DNA of 64,000 nucleotides, taken from IMG/VR virus record IMGVR_UViG_3300046697_000072, one strand, 5' to 3'. Numbering within the stretch: position 1 is the stretch's first letter; each line of letters starts with the position of its first letter. Under the pieces are notes generated by a model, which was not told the origin of the DNA, made no database searches, and saw only the letters and a program-made list of their open reading frames with translations. Of the stretch, positions 1 to 48,126 are shown piece by piece. The DNA comes from a virus. The position numbers were made by a program, and so were the translations under genes.

Positions 1-320
1 CAACGCTCGGGAAGTTCGTCCCGTCGTCGTACCACTCCTCCAAACCGTTCAGGTACTTCTGCCGGTTCGTCGCTTGCCCGTTCAGGTACATGTTCGTCGC
101 AAGAATCTTCGCCATCTTCAGCGAAGCATTCAGGAATTTAAGCTCTACCTGCGAGAAGACCGCCTCCGGGCCGTCGTTGTTCATGGCATCCCAGGCGTAC
201 AGCGTGATGTTCACCCACGCCATCCGCATGTCCACAACGATGCCCGCTTCCGTGGTCACGTACTTGATGTCCACGGACTCGCCCTTCCCCATGAAGCCGC
301 CGTTGAGTTCTCCAACAAGA
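1..320 (-). CDS. major capsid protein candidate, exon 2 (partial, runs off left edge)
   Basis: Minus frame is open from 320 to the window edge (..ILVGELNGGFMGKGESVDIKYVTTEAGIVVDMRMAW..). G/C-rich third positions. Lies downstream of the scaffold gene. Joined in frame to exon 1 by the predicted splice. Confidence 0.6.
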
Positions 321-576
321 CGTTGTTGTTACGACCGGGATCGCTGGTCCCGACCTTCTCACGCTTTCGCGTGAGACCAGGCTATCTCATCACCCGTTCT
401 GGGTGTCTCGCGCTTCGGATCGCTTGATCCTACTCCCCGTAGGGATAGTCGTTGAACCTTCCGGATTTCTCCGGCTTGGCTGCGGATTGCCATGGCCGAC
501 ATCGGCTGTAGGGTTTCCCGCAATTCACGAGATTTTTCCGTAGTGGCTCCCGCCACCAGGCGACTATTGTTAGTTA
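321..576 (-). ncRNA. group I self-splicing intron, ORF-less (256 nt)
   Basis: Minus-strand RNA has P AAUUGCGGGAAA (525-514), Q AAUCCGCAGC (488-479), R GUUCAACGACUA (457-446) and S GAGAUAGCC (388-380). GNRA hairpins at 556-543 and 375-358. P1 has a U.G pair; P10 pairs with exon 2; omega-G is at 321. Confidence 0.8.
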
Positions 577-731
577 ATCGTTTCGGACACTCTGGCGTTT
601 CCGGTGAAAGGCTCTCTGTTCTGCGATTCGAGCCGCACGAAAAGCGGATCGCTCGCATAGATGACATCCGCGCAATACGGAGAAATTTTCCGTGAGACGT
701 ATGCATCAAGATCCGAGAGCTGCAAAGACAT
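577..731 (-). CDS. major capsid protein candidate, exon 1
   Basis: ATG at 731 follows SD GAGGGGG. Product MSLQLSDLDAYVSRKISPYCADVIYASDPLFVRLESQNREPFTGNARVSET. The DPLFxRL segment recalls the N-terminus of lambda gpE-type capsids (from memory). An in-frame stop falls 2 codons past the predicted 5' splice site. Confidence 0.6.
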
Positions 732-839: not shown

Positions 840-986
840 ATGCAACCCAAAGAATTGCAGTTGCACTTACTTCTTTCCAGGGACGACCGAAAGACTCTGG
901 AATCTTTGGCTGAACGCTGGCAGGTGAAACTTGCCGAAGCGATCCGCCGCGCCGTCCGAGAAACCTGGAGGCGCGAAAACCGATGA
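840..986 (+). CDS. ribbon-helix-helix (CopG/Arc-like) DNA-binding protein, 48 aa
   Basis: MQPKELQLHLLLSRDDRKTLESLAERWQVKLAEAIRRAVRETWRRENR fits a beta-strand plus two helices. ATGA overlap with the next gene. Confidence 0.55.
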   Translation: MQPKELQLHLLLSRDDRKTLESLAERWQVKLAEAIRRAVRETWRRENR

Positions 987-1648
987 ACCTGATTACCGGG
1001 AGAGGCCACAAAGTCTACCGCCCATGCCGATGGTGCGGCGAGGTCCTCTCTTATGCCGAAATGAGAGCGCACATAGCGCTTTGCCTGAAGAACCCCCTCC
1101 GCGCTGTTTGTTCCTATTGCGGCTCGCCTTTCAATCGAAGGCGCGGATTCTTGGATCACATCGCCAATGCTTGCTCGAAGTCTCCCGAAGTTCCGCTTGG
1201 CACGAAGATGTGCATCATCTGCCAAAAGCCTCATCTCCTGGAGTCGTTCAGCCGTGACGCTCACTCCACCGATGGGCGGCAGACTACATGCAAACCCTGT
1301 GAGAACTTGTGGAAGGCGAACTTTTACAAGACCCCACGGGGCCGGGCTAGTCATCACGCCACCCACATCAAGGGCCTTTACGGAATCGCTGCCGAAGTAT
1401 ACGGGGTGCTTCTCAAATCGCAGCATGGACGCTGCGCGATCTGCGGGAATCCTCCGAGCGGAGGCCCGAAAGAAAGGCAGCTTGTCGTTGACCACAACCA
1501 CGCCGGCACAAGCGGAAGCGGAGAGGTTCGTGGCTTGCTGTGTTCCCGCTGCAATATCGGGCTCGGAGGATTTCGTGACAACCCGGCCTTCCTGCTGTCG
1601 GCGATCAGTTATCTCGCCGTGCACACGAAGATCGGGATTGTCACGTAG
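983..1648 (+). CDS. recombination endonuclease VII family (HNH-like) free-standing endonuclease
   Basis: GRCAICG...LVVDHNH...GEVRGLLCSRCNIGLGGF signature, plus N-terminal CxxC pairs. Antisense to the surrounding head operon. Confidence 0.85.
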   Translation: MNLITGRGHKVYRPCRWCGEVLSYAEMRAHIALCLKNPLRAVCSYCGSPFNRRRGFLDHIANACSKSPEVPLGTKMCIICQKPHLLESFSRDAHSTDGRQTTCKPCENLWKANFYKTPRGRASHHATHIKGLYGIAAEVYGVLLKSQHGRCAICGNPPSGGPKERQLVVDHNHAGTSGSGEVRGLLCSRCNIGLGGFRDNPAFLLSAISYLAVHTKIGIVT

Positions 1649-4041: not shown

Positions 4042-5316
4042 GTGAAACCGTACTTCGAAGAAGATGACGTTGAGGAGGCCGAAGAGAAAATGACCGACGA
4101 CATGAAAGAACGCGAAACAGACGAACCCCCGGATACCTGCGAGCAACTCGCGAATGCGCTCCGGGAGAAGGATGCCCAAGCCCAGAAGGATCGGGCAGAG
4201 GCGTTCGCGAGCCTGTCACGCGAGATGCTGCTGGCATACGTGGAGCTTTTTCCAAACTTCACATGGCTGGACCCGCAGCAAGCACTGCAAGTGTTCCGCC
4301 GCGCTGTACTCTCTTTGCGTTGGCAGATCAAGCTGATGAACAAGGCCATCGAGATCGGCGCTCAGGATGCGGTCGAGGAGATGTTTCCGATGTCTCCGGC
4401 GAAGCCCTCCGACAGCATGACACTTATCGAGCGGGATTCCGTTGCTGAGTATCGCAAGCGGTTTCTTGCCGAGAAAGCTGAGATCATCGCGCGGCACTTC
4501 ACGCCAGAGCCGATTGTGCCTGTACCAATTCAGCCAAGACGCATCGAAGCACGAACGGACATCATCAATCTACTGGCGCAATACGATGCTGTGATTGAAG
4601 GGCGCGAAAGCGAAGGTGAGTATGAACCCGACGCCGATGATGCGGCTATCGTGGATGACATTCGCCAGCGATGGGGGATGAAGGGCGATCCGGGGGACCC
4701 GCCGATTACTGCTGACGAGAAACTCGACCAATGCGCCCCATACGTCTGTGACCACGACTACTGCGATCTGGAAGAGTGCCGGTGCAAGTGCCATCAGGAT
4801 ACAGCCGTAGCAGCCGTCCGGGAGCTTGCGCCCTTCACGGATCAACCGCTCTCGAAGATCGCCACAATTCGTCGGCAGCACATACTGATCTGCGAACTGC
4901 GTGAACGGGTAAATGAATACCTCACGACCCTTCGTGCCGTATCCGTTGAAGGGCTTGGGTTGACGGACCCGTGGGCGGAAACCGCAACGGACGAGGCTCC
5001 CGATGAATGGACCGGATTACTGAGCGAGAAGGTGGCGGAACTGCGTAGAGAGCGCGACGAAGCGCGCACCGATGCGGCAGCACGGTTGAAGCAGATGCTG
5101 AACCAGTCGGACCTCGACAAACGTGCGATCAAGGAGTGGGAGCAGGCTCTAACCAAAGCGACCGATCTATTGCGCCCATTCGTGCGCATGGAGTTTAACT
5201 CTATGTCGGGCGAGGATACTATTATCAACGGAGCAAAGCAATCCGACTTCGATGCCGCCAAAGTTTTCCTGGATGGCTTTGATTCGCGCCGCAAGGCGAA
5301 GAAAGGGAGAGTATGA
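4042..5316 (+). CDS. acidic hypothetical protein, 424 aa
   Basis: GTG start after GGAGAA. Long ORF on the strand opposite the head operon. Confidence 0.6.
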   Translation: MKPYFEEDDVEEAEEKMTDDMKERETDEPPDTCEQLANALREKDAQAQKDRAEAFASLSREMLLAYVELFPNFTWLDPQQALQVFRRAVLSLRWQIKLMNKAIEIGAQDAVEEMFPMSPAKPSDSMTLIERDSVAEYRKRFLAEKAEIIARHFTPEPIVPVPIQPRRIEARTDIINLLAQYDAVIEGRESEGEYEPDADDAAIVDDIRQRWGMKGDPGDPPITADEKLDQCAPYVCDHDYCDLEECRCKCHQDTAVAAVRELAPFTDQPLSKIATIRRQHILICELRERVNEYLTTLRAVSVEGLGLTDPWAETATDEAPDEWTGLLSEKVAELRRERDEARTDAAARLKQMLNQSDLDKRAIKEWEQALTKATDLLRPFVRMEFNSMSGEDTIINGAKQSDFDAAKVFLDGFDSRRKAKKGRV

Positions 5317-5585
5317 CCGATCAGGTTCCCGGCCCGTCCAGCCTTGTGTACGTGGTGGCCGAAGTCATGGAGAGACGCGAGAAGCAGGATGCCCGTCACG
5401 GCGGTCCCGAGCACGACGACACGCACACGCCATCAGACTGGAGAGTCTTTATTGGTCTGTACAATCGGGTCTCAGCGGAATACGAGAGCGAGCCAGAGAT
5501 CCGAGAAGACAAACTCCTTGACGTTGCGGCGCTCGCGGTGGCTGCCATCCAGAGCAGCCGGAGGAAACGAAATGCGAGCAATTGA
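5313..5585 (+). CDS. hypothetical protein, 90 aa
   Basis: ATGA-type overlap with the upstream gene. Confidence 0.5.
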   Translation: MTDQVPGPSSLVYVVAEVMERREKQDARHGGPEHDDTHTPSDWRVFIGLYNRVSAEYESEPEIREDKLLDVAALAVAAIQSSRRKRNASN

Positions 5586-6226: not shown

Positions 6227-6377
6227 GAAGAATCAAGCCGCTGTCGAGCTAGGCAAGCGCGGTGGCGCGGCCATGGCCAAGCGCGGGCCGGAGTACTTCA
6301 AGCGCATCTCCGCTATGCGGAAGAATAAACGCGGCGGGAGACCGAAGAAGAATGCAGTTCAAGTCGGTCAGGTATAA
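6219..6377 (+). CDS. small basic protein, 52 aa
   Basis: The ATG overlaps the upstream stop. Product MAEKNQAAVELGKRGGAAMAKRG.. Confidence 0.45.
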   Translation: MAEKNQAAVELGKRGGAAMAKRGPEYFKRISAMRKNKRGGRPKKNAVQVGQV

Positions 6378-7455
6378 GAGCGTCGTAGACCGAAATCATC
6401 CTTTGGCGAATTCTCAAGGGTCAGTGAAGGTCCATCGCAAGCTCCTGTACGATAGGATCGGGCCGGGTGAGCACAACTGCCATTGGTGTGGCCGAGTGGT
6501 CCGGTGGAGCAAGCAGGGTACGGCGGGCAACAAAGACCCACACTACTTGGCCGTCGATCACGTTGACGGGGATTCCTTCCACAACGTCGATGACAACTTG
6601 GTCCCGAGTTGCCAGTCCTGCAACACCCGAAGGGCTCACCAACGCATACACGTTAATCCGTCCAGCCTATTGCCAAGCATGAAGCCTGGACGGTCGAGAT
6701 ACAAACAGATCTGCGTCCCTGAAGGGCACCCGCTGGTCAATCCCGGAAGCCCGGCGAAAGTACTTGTACATCGTCTCGTGCTGTACAACCGAATCGGGCC
6801 AGGCCCACATCCGTGCCACTGGTGCGGGAAGCTGGTGGATTGGACGGTCGGTAGGTTCCAGACCAAGGGTGCGTTCGAAGGTGCCCTCATCGTGGATCAC
6901 CTGGACGATTACGGAAAGAACAACGATCCGGAAAACTTGGTCCCTTCCTGCCAAGACTGCAATATCCATCGAACCACAAAGGAACGTTTCGAGAGAATAC
7001 CTCATGTCATCGTTGATGGCCGTCGCTATGCAGCCATCAAAAGGACCTGTAATTCTTGCGGCAAGGATTTTCTGGTGCGCCCATGTAGCGCTCGAAGGCA
7101 TTCCAACAGTGGCAAATACTGCTCAAGAGAGTGCGCCGCTAACGGACGCTATGTAGCCTGCCGAGAGGTCCGGACCTGCGAGACCTGCGGGAATGAATTC
7201 CTGTTTGTTACAAAGATGTCAAAATGGGTCTCGGGGCGGTACTGTTCTAAGAGATGTAATCTGGTTGCAACTCATCTGGCGAGATTGAAGTTGACAGAAG
7301 CGCAGCGCATGGATGTGCGTGAGAAAAGGATTGCGGGTAAAACCATACCAGAGCTAGCTAAAGAATTTAGCGTGTGCCATGGAACTATCGAGAATATCAT
7401 CTACGACAAGTTAACGGTTGTTCCTAGGTTGGGTTCCCTTGCCGTTGCCCCCTAG
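6352..7455 (+). CDS. HNH endonuclease with tandem HNH modules and C-terminal zinc ribbons
   Basis: Two copies of CHWCG..(V/I)DH(V/L)D....N(L)VPSCQxCN, then repeated CxxCG..F...(G)(K/R)YCS..C units. Its 3' end overlaps the portal 3' end. Confidence 0.8.
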   Translation: MQFKSVRYKSVVDRNHPLANSQGSVKVHRKLLYDRIGPGEHNCHWCGRVVRWSKQGTAGNKDPHYLAVDHVDGDSFHNVDDNLVPSCQSCNTRRAHQRIHVNPSSLLPSMKPGRSRYKQICVPEGHPLVNPGSPAKVLVHRLVLYNRIGPGPHPCHWCGKLVDWTVGRFQTKGAFEGALIVDHLDDYGKNNDPENLVPSCQDCNIHRTTKERFERIPHVIVDGRRYAAIKRTCNSCGKDFLVRPCSARRHSNSGKYCSRECAANGRYVACREVRTCETCGNEFLFVTKMSKWVSGRYCSKRCNLVATHLARLKLTEAQRMDVREKRIAGKTIPELAKEFSVCHGTIENIIYDKLTVVPRLGSLAVAP

Positions 7456-9295
7456 TTTGACGTGGGGTACGTCCTGCTGCCGGGCCGACACCGGCCTCGT
7501 GCTCCTCTTTCATTCGCTGCATTTCCACCTTGTAATCGGCGGGGAACTCCGCTTGCTCATAGAGGCCCTGAAGACTTAACGCCCCAAGTTTGTAGAGCGT
7601 CAGGCATTCCACCTTGCGCTGATATCTGGAACTGCTATGGCTGGACCCCGGCGCAATCCGTACCGAAAAGCGAGCCCAGTGGTCCTCCCTCGGTGCCGAA
7701 AACGGCTTCATGATATTCGGGTCGTAGTCACAATCCGCCCACGTCATCCCGTCCGAACCCAGCACGCGAAGCCTTCCGTCCAACGTTGCATACTGGAAGA
7801 TGTTGGAGCAAAGCTGTTTCCCGGATCGGCAGATGGCAGCTTCAAGATACCGGCCTTCGAGTTGGTAGGGCTGCGACATGGCCTCGCGCATCTGCTCGAT
7901 GGCCTCACCACCGGGCTGCTGCTTCTTACGCATCATCCCCTGGGTGTCCAACGCGCCAGAGCGCTTCTTCACGGTCTGCACCCAGTAGTTCAACGCTGCG
8001 TCGGTCCCGCTGGGGATGCTGGGGGAGTCCATCCAGAAGAGGTCGCCCCGCTGCATGATGGGATTACCTAGGATTTTCTGACCCGGTTTTCCGGGGATGA
8101 TCTGATCCCAGACGGCATCCGGGATGGCTCCGCGCTTGCCTACCAGAGTCCGGTTGAAGGCGTTGGTTATGGACTCTTCAACCCCGGCCCCGGCCCGGTT
8201 GATTGCCCCGTTGAGCGGCACGATGTCCCGGTACTTGCTGATCCCGCCCGGCATGAAGACGCACGGGTTCAATTGCAGCATCGTGTAGGGGTATTGCCCG
8301 TGCCAGAACGGGCTGGGGCCATCGTACATTACCCGGTCTCCGCCGAAGATAGTCAGGCGCTTCCGGGGGTACAACCTGCAGCCCGGTGGCACCAAGTAGT
8401 GGTAGTTGTGCTCCTCACGGGTCAGGTCCGGGTGGTGAACCCAGACTTCTTCGTTGCTCTCGTTCACGCTCCAGTCGTCGGAGTAGACCTCCTGGAGTTC
8501 AATGACCGGGTGTGGCGTGCCTTCGGTGCCACCCATCCTGGATGGGCCTTGGCCCCATAGTCCACGGCGCATCAGAGCCTTGCGCTTGAAGAACGGTGAG
8601 AGTGCGTCCCACTTGTACTCCGGGACATCATCCGGTCTGCCAAACTGGTCTTGCCCCAGACCGGCTGTTACGTGAACGGCCTCCCGTTCAAGACCACGGC
8701 ATTTGTCGATGCCGAATTTCTCAATGAAGTAGCCGATGGGCTTGTAGGCCCGGTCGATCACCGCTGCCGATTCCTGAATGTCTCCATTACACAGAACCGG
8801 GATCACTTCCCCCGGACCTTTACAGACAAAGAAGAACGCATCCGGGGCCGCAACTTGCTTCAGGAATCCGGTCCCGAACAGCGCGTGGTCTAGCCATTCC
8901 ACCACCCGCAGATCCAGGTCGTTCTCCGTCCACAGGTAGCGCATATAGTTGTGAACGACTTTGGCTTGCTCTTTGTAGGCCGGGACTTTGGAGTAGACCT
9001 CCAATGCCGGTCGGATCTGCGATAGCGAAGACAGGGCCTCCCGGCGCATGTCCTCCATGTAGTTGTCCACGAACGAGCTGCGGAACTTCGGGCGGCGATC
9101 TGGCCAGAACTTGCCTTGCAAGAGCGAGATGTACTGCTGGATGTTCTGGACTTCCTCCCAGTGGACCATCTCCTCTTTGCCCTGGCGTAGAAGGCTGTCA
9201 CGCCAGTTGGTCATTTTCCTGGAGTATCCGTCTTCAATGTCGATGGCTCCGCTCTTGCCGTGCGCCATCCCCGCCCTTGGAGAACTTGCAAACAT
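7424..9295 (-). CDS. portal (head-tail connector) protein
   Basis: 623 aa. Size, position relative to TerL and podovirus-type portal-like sequence (from memory). The start could instead be 9268. Confidence 0.7.
   Translation of the reverse strand: MFASSPRAGMAHGKSGAIDIEDGYSRKMTNWRDSLLRQGKEEMVHWEEVQNIQQYISLLQGKFWPDRRPKFRSSFVDNYMEDMRREALSSLSQIRPALEVYSKVPAYKEQAKVVHNYMRYLWTENDLDLRVVEWLDHALFGTGFLKQVAAPDAFFFVCKGPGEVIPVLCNGDIQESAAVIDRAYKPIGYFIEKFGIDKCRGLEREAVHVTAGLGQDQFGRPDDVPEYKWDALSPFFKRKALMRRGLWGQGPSRMGGTEGTPHPVIELQEVYSDDWSVNESNEEVWVHHPDLTREEHNYHYLVPPGCRLYPRKRLTIFGGDRVMYDGPSPFWHGQYPYTMLQLNPCVFMPGGISKYRDIVPLNGAINRAGAGVEESITNAFNRTLVGKRGAIPDAVWDQIIPGKPGQKILGNPIMQRGDLFWMDSPSIPSGTDAALNYWVQTVKKRSGALDTQGMMRKKQQPGGEAIEQMREAMSQPYQLEGRYLEAAICRSGKQLCSNIFQYATLDGRLRVLGSDGMTWADCDYDPNIMKPFSAPREDHWARFSVRIAPGSSHSSSRYQRKVECLTLYKLGALSLQGLYEQAEFPADYKVEMQRMKEEHEAGVGPAAGRTPRQTRGQRQGNPT
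7778..7791. repeat. palindrome copy GTCCAACGTTGCAT
   Basis: Inside the portal CDS. Confidence 0.95.
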
Positions 9296-9298
9296 AAT

Positions 9299-10105
9299 CT
9301 ACCCCGCCTTTTGAAAATAGCGCTTGCCTTCCCGGAACCTGAGAATGCCCGCACACTTCTTGGAACATGTGCGGAACGGATGGAACTTCAGTTCATACTC
9401 TGGGAACTTGAACTCCGCTCCGCAAACCTCACATTCTCGTTGAACCCATGGAGTATTAGCCCTTAGCCTGTTGTACGCTGCTCGGCAACTGTGGGAGCAC
9501 ACTTTGCCTTTGTTCTCGGGAGTAGACGCGGGGACCAAAAACCTCTTCCCGCAGGCAAGACATGTTTTCTCCTTGGCGGTGCAGCGCTGCCCTCCCCAGA
9601 AAACAACTAGCCCCTCAATCTGTCTCGGCTTAGAGATCCCTTGGGTAAGGCGAGATCTACGCACGTTGGCGCACGACTTAGAGCACGTCGCTTTATACGG
9701 ACGACCGGACAGATTGAATAAGGACAGGTAAGATTTTCTGCACTCAGAGCAATTAAACCACGCTGCCCGACGAGCCCTTCCATTGGAGACGACTAGGAAA
9801 AGTTCTCCTGCCTTGATCCTCCCCTGGCCGTTGGATCTGCCCGAATTACAGGCACTACATGAAGGGACAATGTTGTCTGGCCCGTTATTCAAAGTGTCCT
9901 CGTCAACATGGTCTGCAATCAGGAACCTTGGCGTGTTCACTGGCACGCCGACCATCCACTGTAGGGGGCACCCGCACCAATGGCAGCGCTGCTCCCCTGG
10001 ACCGATTTTTTGATAGAGCACAAGACGGTGTACGCGGACATACCCATTTATGCCCGCCAATGGGTGCCCTGGAAGCCGTGTAGTCTTATACTGGACAGGT
10101 TCCAT
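9299..10105 (-). CDS. HNH endonuclease with C-terminal zinc ribbons (paralog of 6352-7455)
   Basis: CHWCGCPL...IADHVDEDTLNNGPDNIVPSCSACN, plus three CxxCGK.F...CS..C repeats. Confidence 0.8.
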   Translation of the reverse strand: MEPVQYKTTRLPGHPLAGINGYVRVHRLVLYQKIGPGEQRCHWCGCPLQWMVGVPVNTPRFLIADHVDEDTLNNGPDNIVPSCSACNSGRSNGQGRIKAGELFLVVSNGRARRAAWFNCSECRKSYLSLFNLSGRPYKATCSKSCANVRRSRLTQGISKPRQIEGLVVFWGGQRCTAKEKTCLACGKRFLVPASTPENKGKVCSHSCRAAYNRLRANTPWVQRECEVCGAEFKFPEYELKFHPFRTCSKKCAGILRFREGKRYFQKAG

Positions 10106-11156: not shown

Positions 11157-11492
11157 TTAAATCATTGCTATCTTCCAGATGGCCAGCCACAGAACCTTGC
11201 ATAGAACGTGCAGGGCCTGATCGACATTAAGCCCGTACCTGCCGTCGCATTTCCCATAGTCGATCAAAGCGTGGGTGCAGAACTCTGCCACGCCAAGCAC
11301 TACGCTCCCGGTCACCAGTGAGACCGCACCCGCCTGAATCAGAGCATGAGCCGCGAGACATTGATACCAGGGGATCGTCGGGATGGGGTTTTTGTGGTTC
11401 TTGCCCCGCGCAAGGAAATCTCCCTGGAGTGGGTAGTCGCAAACTGCGTGGCCCACCAGCAGCCACCAGAATGAAGTCAGTATCAGCGTCAT
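11157..11492 (-). CDS. DUF3307-like integral membrane protein
   Basis: MTLILTSFWWLLVGHAVCDYPLQGDF.. The ATG overlaps the terL stop (ATGA). Confidence 0.55.
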   Translation of the reverse strand: MTLILTSFWWLLVGHAVCDYPLQGDFLARGKNHKNPIPTIPWYQCLAAHALIQAGAVSLVTGSVVLGVAEFCTHALIDYGKCDGRYGLNVDQALHVLCKVLWLAIWKIAMI

Positions 11493-14400
11493 AGTACCCC
11501 CAGTTCTACCTCGGGCGGCTTCTCGTTGTCCCGCTGCGCGCTCATCCATTCGAACGCTTCGTCCAGATTCGTCTTCCGGGGATCGGCGGTAGTCACCGGC
11601 TCCCCGGTAATCCGAATCGACTGGCAGGCTTCGTTCGGGCATCGGTACTCTTTCTCCGGGTTCGCTGCCCCCCACACGGTCTTACACTTTAGGCACGTCA
11701 TCCTGTACCGGGCCGGGGCCGACTCTTCGATCCCCACGGGAACCTGGATGCGCCCAGTTTCATCGCAGTCCAATTCGTGTGCCGTGTATAAACTGATCAT
11801 GCCTGCCATGAGTTCGTCATCATTGCAGTTTGACGCAGCCCCGAAAGACCGGCTGGCGTATTCTTCCTTCCGGTACGTGGTCGTTTCCTCAAAGAAGTTC
11901 TTCGACCGGATGATCCAGCAATGGGAGAGCAGCCAGTCCACGGCGGTCTGGTGCAGGTAAGCCTTTGTGTTCGGCTTCGTCCACCAGTGCCACGTCTGAG
12001 ACATTGGGTTGATCTTGTCCTTGTGCTTCCAGCGGTAGACGTTCGGGTAGTGGTAGACGTACAGCAAGTCATCCCCAGTGGTCTGGTAGGTGTTGTACTC
12101 GACGGCCATTTCCCCGTAGTTGTACCACTTGCCGATCACGTTCGCGTAGAACGCCAAATCCTTGGGGTAAGTGTGGTTGTCCCGGAAGACGGCTACCTGT
12201 TCATCGGGCCGGTGCGGGCCACCGATCTTGTTGACGAAGATCACGGAATAGTCTTCCCCGATCCCTTCGCTGACATCGACAGCAATGGAGTACGTCGCGC
12301 CTTTGATCGGCTCCTCCCATACCCAGAACGGAGTGTCGTCATGCCGGTGGTCAACGTTGCACGTCGGCACGAAGCACCGGCCTTTCCGCAGAGGATCGGC
12401 TCCGTGGATCTCCCCGTTGTCCCGATAGATTTTGCCTTTCTTCAGCGGGAACTCTTCGATGGTCTCCGTCATCCAGTCCCGGCAGGCATCACTGAATAGA
12501 ACGTAGCCGCTCACTTGCCAGGATTCCTCGGACGTAACGCAATTGTGGACAGTGAATCCGTTTGCTGAAAACAGATGTGAAGGGGTGATCTCCATGTCGA
12601 ACACGGAGCAATCCTCCCCCGCTTGGACCTTCAGAACCCTGTCGGCCATTGGATGCTGATAGGACCACTGGTTAATCTGGAAAGTTGGCCTTATGCAAGC
12701 GCTACGCTTACGGTCACTGATGAATCCGACGCGCTCGTGGAATCGGTTGGACTGCGTGACCCCTAAGCCCAAGCACCTCCCTGTAAACGTTCTTCCCTCG
12801 GAATTAGTTTTGTCCTCTTTGTGGATCGTTCCGTTAATCCCGAAAGCCAACAGCAGTAGCTGGACATCCCTGATGAACGGTTCGAACTTCGAGAAAAACC
12901 GAGTGCGCGGAACATTCTTGTCAGCGTTACCGTCACATTCGAACAGGGCCGACAAGAACTCCTTGACAACTGAAGCCGGTGATCTCCAAATACAGTCTGG
13001 GACGCGCACCTTCCGATGCCAGCCGTACTTGTTGTTCGGCCACAATTCGATAGCACCGATCTGCTTTAAGATGGGTCTCCACCGAATGTCGTGGGACCTC
13101 AGGCTGTTCATGCCTCCAATGCGAGATCGGCAACAAGCGTGCCCGGTAAATTTGATAACAAGCCGGTCGATATCATCGGCTACGTCTGGGTCTTTGGCGT
13201 CACAGGCGAAACCGATCCCACCTTCAGTAAGACCGCCATCCCCCATGAAGTACCCCAGGAACCGTCCGAGGTCTTCATCGACATGAATGGAATGGTGCTC
13301 TATCGGAGGGTCAGACCATTCGATTTCGCAATAGCGGCCTGATAAGCGCGGGGGGCAAAGCCGAACAGAATCTCCGTAGTGTAGGTCTCCCGCCGCTTTC
13401 CAGTCTCCGGATTCCAGGAGGATCAAGTGGTCTGCCGTGCATTGGAGAATTCTACCGCTCAATGTTTCAACGATGACCGTGTGCTGAAATCCTTTGTCGA
13501 ACCATCCGGAGACTTCTCCCGACTCGGAGGATTGCCCGACGTTCTCCCTCGCCCCTATGGGAAGAATCCCAAGCTCTGTAGAGACCCGCATATTCCCGGC
13601 GATGCAATGTTCCTGACGAAGTAACTTTACAGCATTGACACCCTGTTCTTCGGCCTGTTCACGCCGGTCCTGGTGCCAGTAAAGCTGCTCATCAGTGAGC
13701 ACCAGCCGCATCAACGTTCCAGCCTTGCACTCCGGGCAAACAGTCCCGATCATGGATTCTTCCATGACGATGGCCTTCTGGTAGCGCCCGCAGATAGAGT
13801 TATTGCACCGAGCCCATTCTTTTTTAACGCGCTCACGGAGCGTGAACTCTTTGTGGGGCATAGTCCAGCCGTTTGGAGGAGCCAACACGCGGGTAGTCTC
13901 GAAGAACGTCGGAAGGAATAGCGGATACCATTTCGGCCATTTCCCGGCATCCAGACGGCGTTCACAGGCCCTCCAGAGTAAGTGGGATGCCGTTCCGGCC
14001 CCGCGCCCAGTGGACTCCATGAATCCGAAAACTTCCGGGTCATCGGCCATGGAGTTTGCCAAGTCTTCGTTTACGATGGCCTCCAGGTCTTCTTCCAAGA
14101 AATCCGAGAATTCAGAACAGTGAACCGCGTCGATAGGGATGCCCTGTCCTACACCGGAGTACTGATTGGACCACTGCACGAAAACTTTAGAGTTCAGTCC
14201 GGGGTGGCGAGAGCGCTGGTTATCGTCCGGGTTCTCGAACCACAGTCCGTACTGCTCCTCACGCCGAGCTATCATGGGCTTCAACCACCACGGCAGCTTG
14301 TCGTAAATGTGGAGCATGAGCCCGAACAAGTAGGACGAGTGTTTCTGATCCACAGAGATCACGATGGCGTTCGTGTTGGGGAAAAACATCGACCGCCACG

Positions 14401-14776
14401 CGATCATGGCTTCGATCAAAGTGCTGCATCCCAACTGCCGGCCCTTCACGATAATCAGTTTCTGGGGCTTCCCCATTGCCTTCAGCCGGTAGAACTCCTG
14501 AAGGATCAAATACTGCGATTCCCAGAGAGTGAAAAGCTGGTCCTGCTTTTTCTTCGTGGTGATCCAGAAGTAGTTCCTGGCCGCGTAGGAGAAGTCATCC
14601 GAGCAGTCTCGGGCCTGCTCCATGATGGCCTGCCGGTCGGAAGGGGAGCATGACTCGAACTTATCTGACGATGGGAGCCGGTCCCAGTCTTCGAGTGAGA
14701 TTTTTAGCTTGGCCGGGAGGCCCTGGTCTAGCCAGTCGATCATGCTTTGGATCGAAGGGTCTCGCTTCCAGGCCAT
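11489..14776 (-). CDS. terL: terminase large subunit (intein-containing precursor)
   Basis: Walker A KGRQLGCST and Walker B IDAVHCSEF. C-terminal nuclease-like region. Interrupted by a 355-aa intein. Two Cys4 ribbon-like inserts. Confidence 0.85.
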   Translation of the reverse strand: MAWKRDPSIQSMIDWLDQGLPAKLKISLEDWDRLPSSDKFESCSPSDRQAIMEQARDCSDDFSYAARNYFWITTKKKQDQLFTLWESQYLILQEFYRLKAMGKPQKLIIVKGRQLGCSTLIEAMIAWRSMFFPNTNAIVISVDQKHSSYLFGLMLHIYDKLPWWLKPMIARREEQYGLWFENPDDNQRSRHPGLNSKVFVQWSNQYSGVGQGIPIDAVHCSEFSDFLEEDLEAIVNEDLANSMADDPEVFGFMESTGRGAGTASHLLWRACERRLDAGKWPKWYPLFLPTFFETTRVLAPPNGWTMPHKEFTLRERVKKEWARCNNSICGRYQKAIVMEESMIGTVCPECKAGTLMRLVLTDEQLYWHQDRREQAEEQGVNAVKLLRQEHCIAGNMRVSTELGILPIGARENVGQSSESGEVSGWFDKGFQHTVIVETLSGRILQCTADHLILLESGDWKAAGDLHYGDSVRLCPPRLSGRYCEIEWSDPPIEHHSIHVDEDLGRFLGYFMGDGGLTEGGIGFACDAKDPDVADDIDRLVIKFTGHACCRSRIGGMNSLRSHDIRWRPILKQIGAIELWPNNKYGWHRKVRVPDCIWRSPASVVKEFLSALFECDGNADKNVPRTRFFSKFEPFIRDVQLLLLAFGINGTIHKEDKTNSEGRTFTGRCLGLGVTQSNRFHERVGFISDRKRSACIRPTFQINQWSYQHPMADRVLKVQAGEDCSVFDMEITPSHLFSANGFTVHNCVTSEESWQVSGYVLFSDACRDWMTETIEEFPLKKGKIYRDNGEIHGADPLRKGRCFVPTCNVDHRHDDTPFWVWEEPIKGATYSIAVDVSEGIGEDYSVIFVNKIGGPHRPDEQVAVFRDNHTYPKDLAFYANVIGKWYNYGEMAVEYNTYQTTGDDLLYVYHYPNVYRWKHKDKINPMSQTWHWWTKPNTKAYLHQTAVDWLLSHCWIIRSKNFFEETTTYRKEEYASRSFGAASNCNDDELMAGMISLYTAHELDCDETGRIQVPVGIEESAPARYRMTCLKCKTVWGAANPEKEYRCPNEACQSIRITGEPVTTADPRKTNLDEAFEWMSAQRDNEKPPEVELGVL
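12349..12362. repeat. palindrome copy GGTCAACGTTGCAC
   Basis: terL C-extein. Confidence 0.9.
12542..13606 (-). mobile_element. class 1 intein with LAGLIDADG homing endonuclease domain (355 aa)
   Basis: Starts CIAGNMRV, block B is TADH, ends FTVHN followed by Cys+1. Dodecapeptide motifs LGYFMGDGG and LSALFECDGN. Confidence 0.85.
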
Positions 14777-38912: not shown

Positions 38913-38924
38913 GGAGTGAACCCA

Positions 38925-39866
38925 ATGAAGCTACAGATCAAATCATTAGCTGGCTCGCTGCTATTTGAGTCCGAGTCGGAATCACTGAAAGAGCTTCTGG
39001 TGGGAGCAGTTGAATCCCGTGCGAACCTCTCCGGTGCGAACCTCTACGGTGCGAACCTCTCCGGTGCGGACCTCTACCGTGCGAACCTCTCCGGTGCGAA
39101 CCTCTACGGTGCGAACCTCTCCGGTGCGAACCTCTCCGGTGCGAACCTCTACGGTGCGGACCTCTCCGGTGCGAACCTCTCCGGTGCGAACCTCTCCGGT
39201 GCGAACCTCTCCGGTGCGGACCTCTCCGGTGCGAACCTCTACGGTGCGGACCTCTCCGGTGCGAACCTCTCCGGTGCGAACCTCTCCGGTGCGAACCTCT
39301 ACAGTGCGAACCTCTCCGGTGCGAACCTCTACGGTGCGGACCTCTCCGGTGCGAACCTCTCCGGTGCGAACCTCTCCGGTGCGAACCTCTACCGTGCGAA
39401 CCTCTCCGGTGCGAACCTCTACGGTGCGGACCTCTCCCGTGCGAACCTCTCCGGTGCGAACCTCTACGGTGCGGACCTCTCCCGTGCGAACCTCTCCGGT
39501 GCGGAGGGTATAAAGGATCTCGCTTCTCTGGAGTGGTTCATGAGAAACTTCAAGAAAACCAAACATGGAGTGATCGTGTATAAGTGTTTTCACGGCACTT
39601 TCGCTCCAAATCCATGCTGGAAAATCGAACCGGGGACCGTCCTCACCGAGATCTGTGGACCAATGCCGACCGATGACTGCGCCTGCGGCTTAAACTTCGC
39701 CACGTTGGAATGGGTCAGAGCGAATCACCCCGGGAAAATCATCTGGCGTTGCCTGATCCGCTGGGCGTGGCTCCCCGGAGTTGTGATCCCGTGGAATACG
39801 AACGGGAAGGCCCGGTGTTCGAAACTGATGCTCTTACGGCCACTGAAGGAGGGTGAAACAAAATAG
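38925..39866 (+). CDS. pentapeptide-repeat protein with a Cys-rich C-terminal domain
   Basis: About 32 consecutive units of A(N/D)L(S/Y)(G/R), then a 120-aa non-repeat domain. SD GAGGAG before the ATG at 38925. Confidence 0.85.
39019..39503 (+). repeat. near-perfect 15-nt tandem array (about 32 units) GCGAACCTCTCCGGT and variants
   Basis: Units differ only at A/G (Asn/Asp), C/A (Ser/Tyr) and G/C (Gly/Arg) positions. All six frames are open. Confidence 0.95.
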
Positions 39867-47877: not shown

Positions 47878-48126
47878 GTGCTTCGCCCGCGCGGATTCGG
47901 CCAAGTCAGTATTCGTACCGGCTCTGGCCTGACAATAACAACCGACACGAAAGACTTGGAGGTTATCCCTGAGGACCTAAGCCAACAGCACTTGGTCCTC
48001 AGGAAATCACCGAACGAAGTAATTCCATTCAACCTTGCGGCACACGAGTTTCAATCCACGCCCGGACATCCGGGCGAACTACAGACTGATTGTACCACAA
48101 CAAAGGAGCGTAAAAACACGTTATGA
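47878..48126 (+). CDS. hypothetical protein, 82 aa
   Basis: GTG follows GGAGGA. Overlaps the alternative ORF 47778-47972. Confidence 0.4.
   Translation: MLRPRGFGQVSIRTGSGLTITTDTKDLEVIPEDLSQQHLVLRKSPNEVIPFNLAAHEFQSTPGHPGELQTDCTTTKERKNTL

Follow-up and report, generated by a model that had tools for sequence, protein, structure and literature searches.

Group I introns are a classic feature of phage genes. Introns have been documented in capsid genes, those of lactococcal phage Tuc2009 and mycobacteriophage LittleE, in the latter case within the major capsid gene (Pope et al. 2013, PMC3706429). Staphylococcus phage Twort is reported to have three group I introns in one gene, orf142 (Landthaler and Shub 1999), and very intron-rich phages were recently described (PMC12880540). 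In cyanophage S-PM2, a psbA intron without an open reading frame (ORF) and the free-standing endonuclease F-CphI, of the endonuclease VII (Endo VII)-motif "DHHRN" family, provide an example of collaborative homing (PMC6083498; PMC3984707). Here we describe a related arrangement in IMG/VR virus record IMGVR_UViG_3300046697_000072, a stretch of 64,000 nucleotides (nt) referred to below as the window. Positions 576..321 on its minus strand very probably constitute a 256-nt ORF-less group I intron of subgroup IA, located inside codon 52 (AU/U, Ile) of a gene that probably encodes the major capsid protein; the phage is tailed and uncultured.

A group I intron had been proposed at this place in an initial annotation made by inspection of the sequence, and a covariance-model search bears the proposal out. 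Rfam model RF00028 matches 586..358 on the minus strand (E = 2.2e-19); the score of 82.3 bits lies above the gathering score of 50, and the match is untruncated, extending over all 253 positions of the model (1-253). It is the sole Rfam hit at gathering level in the window, and an Rfam scan at E <= 1 revealed no further introns in the 64,000 nt. The nhmmer profile of the intron family described below also matches the element (E = 5e-73). The predicted intron begins with UAAC and ends with G321. Folded alone, it has an energy of -96.2 kcal/mol (z = -3.77), and none of 200 shuffled sequences was as low, so that both the fold and the model match are far beyond what chance would give. The absence of an internal gene, also claimed initially, was confirmed: the longest ORF on the sense strand is a 32-codon GTG ORF at 528..430, and a 256-nt intron therefore has no room for a homing endonuclease gene.

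Direct reading of the minus strand located the four classical core elements exactly where the initial annotation had placed them: P (AAUUGCGGGAAA, 525-514), Q (AAUCCGCAGC, 488-479), R (GUUCAACGACUAUC, 457-444) and S (GAGAUAGCC, 388-380). Both GNRA-capped hairpins are likewise in place. The first, P2 (region 542..557), reads GUGGC-GGGA-GCCAC at 556-543. It is followed in 456..532 by the 5' strand of P3 (532-526), P4 (522-517 with 486-481), P5/P5a (512-490) and P6/P6a (480-456), and in 417..450 by the 5' strand of P7 (450-445), P7.1 (444-435) and P7.2 (430-417). The segment 380..412 holds the 3' strand of P3 (412-406), P8 (405-391), J8/7 and the 3' strand of P7 (385-380), and 333..375 contains the second GNRA-capped hairpin, P9 (CUCACGC-GAAA-GCGUGAG, 375-358), together with a further 3' hairpin, P9.x (355-333). 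With P7.1 and P7.2 predicted between the P7 5' strand and the P3 3' strand, the intron is of subgroup IA, the usual type in phages. By the general subgroup definitions it may be IA2 rather than IA1 or IA3.

Comparative support for this fold came from eight related introns, which were aligned with MAFFT and to which the P7 pseudoknot was added by hand, giving 72 pairs in 14 helices. Standard pairs filled 95.9% of the cells, and 35 of the 72 pairs had changed on both sides. In control alignments, in which the 3' partners were slid by 1-3 columns, 31-43% of cells were paired and 3-7 pairs were compensatory; the observed values were reached by none of 500 shuffles. Unaided, RNAalifold recovered P1, P2, P3, P4, P5/P5a, P6/P6a, P7.1, P7.2, P8, P9 and the further 3' hairpin. 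Compensatory pairs were present in each of P3, P4, P5a, P6 and P6a, and they accounted for five of six pairs in P2, four of five in P7.2 and five of seven in P9, while the three pairs of P7.1 were all invariant. P7 had two compensatory pairs and 95.8% of its cells paired, the P3/P7 pseudoknot being counted in the alignment. The initial annotation was correct that a P7 helix forms between R and S, but covariation assigns it another register, in which G450-U445 pairs with A385-C380: G450-C380 is followed, after an A449.C381 mismatch in the window copy, by C448-G382 to U445-A385. A C444-G386 pair, formerly included in P7, was rejected, as C444 belongs to P7.1 in the covariation register. The window row was misaligned by MAFFT in the P1 columns, so that the P1 figures from the alignment are underestimates, and P1 was re-derived directly. 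Overall, each defining group I feature that can be tested in silico is supported in the window copy, the guanosine pocket in P7 excepted.

The 5' splice site is predicted from a P1 hairpin at 561..580 (minus strand), where exon bases C580-G579-A578-U577 pair with guide bases G561-C562-U563-G564, leaving a U577.G564 wobble at the splice site itself. The helix is extended by U576-A565 and A575-U566. This pairing and the intron end at G321, both suggested in the initial annotation, were seen on direct reading, and the layout is common to the family: in 12 of 12 introns the exon and the guide form exactly four pairs, the last of them U.G, and the final intron base is always G. Over the six insertion sites described below, the guides (GUCG, GUCC, GGGC, GUGC, GUCA and GCGC) track their exons. 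This covariation between guide and exon provides direct comparative support for the predicted choice of 5' splice site. The adjoining part of the guide, 565..571, is capable of pairing with exon-2 bases 320-314 (UCUUGUU) at six of seven positions, as had been pointed out, which makes a P10 helix plausible in the window copy.

Exon 1 of the putative major capsid gene (577..731, minus strand) begins with an ATG at 731, has an SD (Shine-Dalgarno)-like GGGGGU ending 8 nt before that ATG, and comprises 51 codons plus 2 nt, ending at U577. As recognized initially, the ORF from 731 stops at UAA 572-570, two codons past the splice-site codon, and joining 577 to 320 produces a single frame, ...NARVSETILVGELNGGFMGKGE..., that continues into exon 2 (1..320, minus strand). 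Exon 2 begins with U320 and extends past the edge of the window, leaving the gene incomplete. The junction is ambiguous by one base because U576 equals U320; 577/320 was chosen since the U.G wobble and the terminal G resolve the ambiguity, with G321 as the last intron base. This junction keeps the frame, and seven intron-less homologues are colinear across it. Homologues P0001, P0002, P0004 and P0012 pass it ungapped, the residues on either side being conserved (FTGNSRIQRPIIVGELNGDF, compared with FTGNARVSETILVGELNGGF in the window), and at loci L001, L005 and L006 the gene is likewise continuous here. The N-terminus encoded by exon 1 aligns from its first Met with that of the intron-less P0002. 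In two metagenomic phages, L007 and L008, an intron sits at exactly this nucleotide and in this codon phase; in both, the exon ends in CGAU, and the intron begins with UAAC and ends with G. When the spliced 5' coding regions of all loci were reconstructed, the N-termini proved colinear. The alignments thus agree with the earlier claim that the intron splits one gene, and the evidence presented here shows the fold of the RNA, its membership in the family, the precise position of the junction and the colinearity with intron-less alleles.

The same annotation had named the interrupted gene as that of the major capsid protein. A search with the spliced 158-amino-acid (aa) product as query found 16 homologues, 10 of which start at or after an intron in their database form, and exon 2 is 65-74% identical to the capsid proteins of the relatives. 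The only match of the spliced fragment is to PHROG 9953, "major head protein" (E = 4.7e-5), in one stretch across the junction (residues 10-154), and full-length relatives match this family with E values of 3.5e-16 and 3.7e-23, the latter for P0013. Gene order, all on the minus strand, is in agreement: the large terminase ORF (11489-14776) comes first, an HNH gene (9299-10105) lies between the terminase and portal genes and ends 4 nt before the portal start, the portal gene follows (7424-9295), and the capsid gene is preceded by a scaffold-like gene of 306 aa (1654-2574) that is conserved among the relatives. Several results weigh against the assignment. It depends on one PHROG family together with gene order; Pfam gave no match to the capsid protein, a PDB sequence profile search gave no hit at E <= 1, and an AlphaFold2 model of P0006 from a 10-sequence alignment was unusable (predicted local distance difference test, pLDDT, 31; predicted template modelling score, pTM, 0.19). 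We therefore consider the capsid identity probable, with good confidence, and not proven.

Comparison with other genomes gave few further leads on the phage itself. In a tblastn search of 50,697 isolate phage genomes the spliced protein had no match, and the portal protein reached only ~25% identity, to Tunturiibacter phages. A capsid-family scan of genome contigs returned no confirmed relative and hence no clue to the host. Other genes of the window code for RecT, a helicase, a sliding clamp, a DnaD-like protein and tail-fibre proteins. By these comparisons, the window is phage DNA without a close cultured relative. Just upstream of the capsid gene, at 780-733 on the minus strand, is a 15-codon mini-ORF (MKILGVTCPANEGVG) with its own AAGGAG ribosome-binding site and a stop 1 nt before the capsid ATG. 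It is kept in L006 as MKHSGDLCPEKGVG and absent from the other relatives; a leader peptide or a role in translational coupling is possible.

To place the window intron among its relatives, we considered the contigs encoding the homologues together with 29 more IMG/VR loci of the capsid family. ORF-less introns of one family occupy at least six positions in the capsid gene, all of them among its first 52 codons, in a stretch of ~130 nt. Site A0 lies between the codons for D and A (L144), site A inside a Tyr codon (L001, L006), site A2 between D and H (L007, L008), site B0 between K and T (L157), site B between D and I (L001, L007, L135, L145) and site C inside an Ile codon (the window, L007, L008). 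Site C, which we count as the rarest of the six, is occupied in three genomes only. Intron-less relatives are L005, L134, L140-L143 and L147-L156. Two or three introns of the family stand in tandem in L007 (3117-3996), L001 (5390-5913) and L008 (1-544), with three within 41 codons in L007, and the shortest exons between them measure 24 nt in L007 and 35 nt in L001. The window itself has one intron in the visible part of the gene, and the multi-site pattern spans different genomes. Alleles with the site-C intron are flanked by CGAU (Ile), intron-less alleles by CCGU or CAGU (Val); the CGAU fits co-conversion and selection for P1 pairing equally well.

Two more insertions, each with an ORF, were seen farther downstream in this gene in relatives. 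In L006, ~790 nt (4611-5403) are inserted after ...YIEW and contain a 237-aa ORF; Pfam gave no match to its product, and Rfam detects no intron core around the insertion. In the contig of P0012/P0016, an insertion after VAWVNITL holds a 288-aa LAGLIDADG_2 ORF.

Introns of the family measure 235-258 nt, and all pairs, the window copy included, are 68-81% identical. Their distribution extends well past the capsid gene. The P7/P7.1 motif TCAACGRYYATCCCNNNNGGGAGTA is present in at least 120 IMG/VR viral contigs (L009-L128); among the motif matches listed, 116 fit the intron-family profile and only one of these encodes this capsid family. With at least 116 such contigs, the family is therefore predicted to be widespread in other phage genes. 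The intron core, used as a blastn query, matched 344 phage records, among them beta22 thyA, T4-like phages and introns annotated in the genes for terminase, DNA polymerase and ribonucleotide reductase.

Beside the capsid gene is a free-standing gene for a 221-aa putative endonuclease (983-1648, plus strand), which is divergently oriented, its start lying 250 bp upstream of the capsid ATG. The C-terminal part of its product (residues 128-211) matches Pfam PF02945 (E = 5.9e-21), and the protein matches the PHROG "endonuclease VII" (E = 1e-35). The CxxC, D-H-x-H, R and CxxCN motifs are invariant in four orthologues (D170, H171, H173, R183, C187, C190, N191). Across the relatives the gene is present or absent at one same place: seven lineages have both endonuclease and intron, three the endonuclease only, one the intron only and eight neither (Fisher p = 0.02 over lineages, uncorrected for phylogeny). 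The window intron belongs to the 235-258-nt family, in which the guide of each copy is matched to its own exon, and the adjacent endonuclease may confer mobility in trans by cutting intron-less alleles near the six sites.

A side observation concerns the DNA between the two genes. A G+C hairpin at 796-828 (CCCCTTGACAGGGGG) overlaps a plus-strand, near-consensus sigma-70-type promoter, TTGACA-17-CATAAT (11/12), that faces the Endo VII gene. The hairpin is also kept in L006, which is without an Endo VII gene.

We regard a mobility partnership between the 983-1648 endonuclease and the intron as a reasonable hypothesis, although a tentative one that we would not put at even odds. Several findings count against it: the orthologous endonucleases are only 36-42% identical, their association with the intron is not significant within the close clade (p = 0.22), L005, L140 and L147 have the endonuclease without an intron, and L006 has an intron without the endonuclease. 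The last two findings fit a competing explanation, to which we give about an even chance, namely that the intron is real but has been inherited vertically or has spread by reverse splicing, while its neighbour is an unrelated selfish endonuclease or a resolvase. One family at six sites, with each 4-nt guide retargeted, is what RNA-guided reverse splicing is expected to produce, and intron similarity does not group by insertion site. Free-standing homing endonucleases usually cut in the gene end near their own gene. It speaks against vertical descent or reverse splicing that all six sites fall within ~130 nt, in the end of the capsid gene nearest the endonuclease gene; the difference between the CGAU and CCGU/CAGU flanks would do so as well if it reflected co-conversion, but it would follow equally from P1 selection. 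Retargeting of the guide through reverse splicing is an equally open route of spread. We also considered a more elaborate scenario, which we judge rather unlikely, that at the 5' end of the capsid gene a free-standing homing endonuclease of the Endo VII type, itself diversifying, contends with a single family of ORF-less introns, whose guides would be retargeted by reverse splicing or ectopic homing, each insertion disrupting another cleavage site of the endonuclease. Collaborative homing combined with repeated retargeting in this way would explain how up to three introns come to lie within 41 codons, as in L007.

For the intron itself, a splicing pathway can be outlined from the established group I mechanism. 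The capsid gene would be transcribed as a precursor, in which the exon-1 end CGAU pairs with the guide GUCG to form P1 with its U577.G564 wobble, and an external guanosine held in the P7 pocket would attack after U577. The terminal G321 would then occupy the P7 pocket and the 3' OH of exon 1 would attack after G321, aided in this copy by the six P10 pairs. Ligation of 577 to 320 would remove 256 nt and restore the single frame, giving a spliced RNA that reads ...GAAACGAU joined to UCUUGUUGG... and a product containing the junction-spanning peptide SETILVGELNGGF. Translation of unspliced RNA would end at UAA 572-570, two codons into the intron, so that the capsid protein would depend on splicing.

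Against active splicing it can be said that the A449.C381 position of P7 is A-U or G.U in most relatives and that P10 has no comparative support, the relatives forming 0-3 of the 7 pairs in the same register without covariation, so that the helix is strong in the window copy only. The element might accordingly be a degenerate, splicing-dead group I relic, with the capsid made as two polypeptides or the phage copy defective. The P7 mismatch would be in keeping with this. There are also known cases, such as Aeh1 nrdA (cited in PMC7344957), in which an insertion that does not splice divides a phage gene into two functional peptides. A relic is nevertheless improbable, in our estimate by a wide margin. 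The full-model match of the window copy is as high as that of the best relatives (82.2 bits), and its core helices, U.G wobble and terminal G are all intact. The 5' end of exon 2 has neither a start codon nor a ribosome-binding site, its first in-frame Met being 10 codons in, and exon 1 alone would give only a 53-aa peptide. Moreover, the same A.C mismatch is found in the site-C intron of L007, which means that two lineages retain it. The further alternative that the 53-codon ORF (731..570) and the downstream ORF are independent genes separated by chance by a structured non-coding RNA, which an ORF scan alone would suggest from the stop at 572-570 and the separate downstream frame, and which the automatic gene starts of several homologues just past the junction (P0003, P0005 to P0010) would seem to favour, is effectively refuted, since the seven intron-less homologues run over the junction gap-free with residues conserved on both sides, no homologue shows two genes there, and the truncated database proteins prove to sit downstream of introns.

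Further mobile elements were noted in the head-gene region of the window. The terminase ORF at 11489-14776 encodes 1095 aa, of which only residues 49-234 match terminase; the match at residues 422-745 is to an intein splicing domain, and residues 603-660 within it match a LAGLIDADG_3 endonuclease domain (E = 3e-13), probably an intein inside terL. A second HNH-type gene of the head module (6262-7455, plus strand) lies on the opposite strand and adjoins the 3' end of the portal gene. Counting the two HNH genes, the Endo VII gene, the intein and the intron, five selfish elements are found within 15 kb. Farther away, 38916-39866 (plus strand) encodes a 316-aa protein consisting almost entirely of pentapeptide repeats (PF00805, E = 8e-72). 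An Rfam CRISPR-DR9 match at 48048-48082 (minus strand; E = 0.013), whose 29.7 bits fall short of the gathering score of 45, was dismissed as chance, since the surrounding sequence has no repeat array.

Taken alone, the intron is ordinary and represents no new kind of element; what the initial annotation leads to that is worth attention is the six-site hot spot beside a variably present endonuclease gene. Because gene callers miss or truncate the capsid gene, marker-gene surveys and capsid predictions for this phage group will be wrong unless the introns are modelled. If the reading above is right, the phage would rely on efficient RNA self-splicing to make its most abundantly produced protein. 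With one intron family at six positions in the same 130 nt of coding sequence, next to an endonuclease gene that comes and goes, the locus amounts to a natural experiment, and the relatives, more than the window, could reveal by what route ORF-less introns arrive at new sites and whether free-standing endonucleases are the driving force.

Compared with known systems, the predicted intron is closest in structure to the phage IA2 introns, such as those of T4 td, nrdB and nrdD, Bacillus phage beta22 thyA and the SPO1 DNA polymerase gene. It shares with them the P3-P8/P4-P6 core, the P, Q, R and S elements, P7.1/P7.2 and GNRA-capped P2 and P9 helices, as well as its compact size and its location within an essential phage protein-coding gene. 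The host genes of those introns function in nucleotide metabolism or replication, whereas the probable host gene here is for a virion structural protein; the window intron is without an ORF, and its phage is uncultured. LittleE and Tuc2009 are tailed phages in which, as is probable in the window, an intron interrupts the gene for the major capsid protein; as in the window, too, the last base of the exon is U, that of the intron is G, and related phages have intron-less alleles. The host genes have no sequence relationship, however, and the LittleE intron is 819 bp long and encodes an HNH endonuclease, whereas the window intron is 256 nt and ORF-less, its endonuclease candidate lying outside the gene. 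Twort orf142 resembles the relatives, L007 above all with its three introns within 41 codons, in having several small related introns in a short stretch of gene; it differs from the window, where the visible part of the gene shows a single intron. The arrangement most like S-PM2 is the free-standing Endo VII-motif endonuclease gene beside a gene with an ORF-less intron. F-CphI is encoded downstream of its gene, whereas the window endonuclease gene is upstream and divergent and is also found in relatives without a capsid intron.

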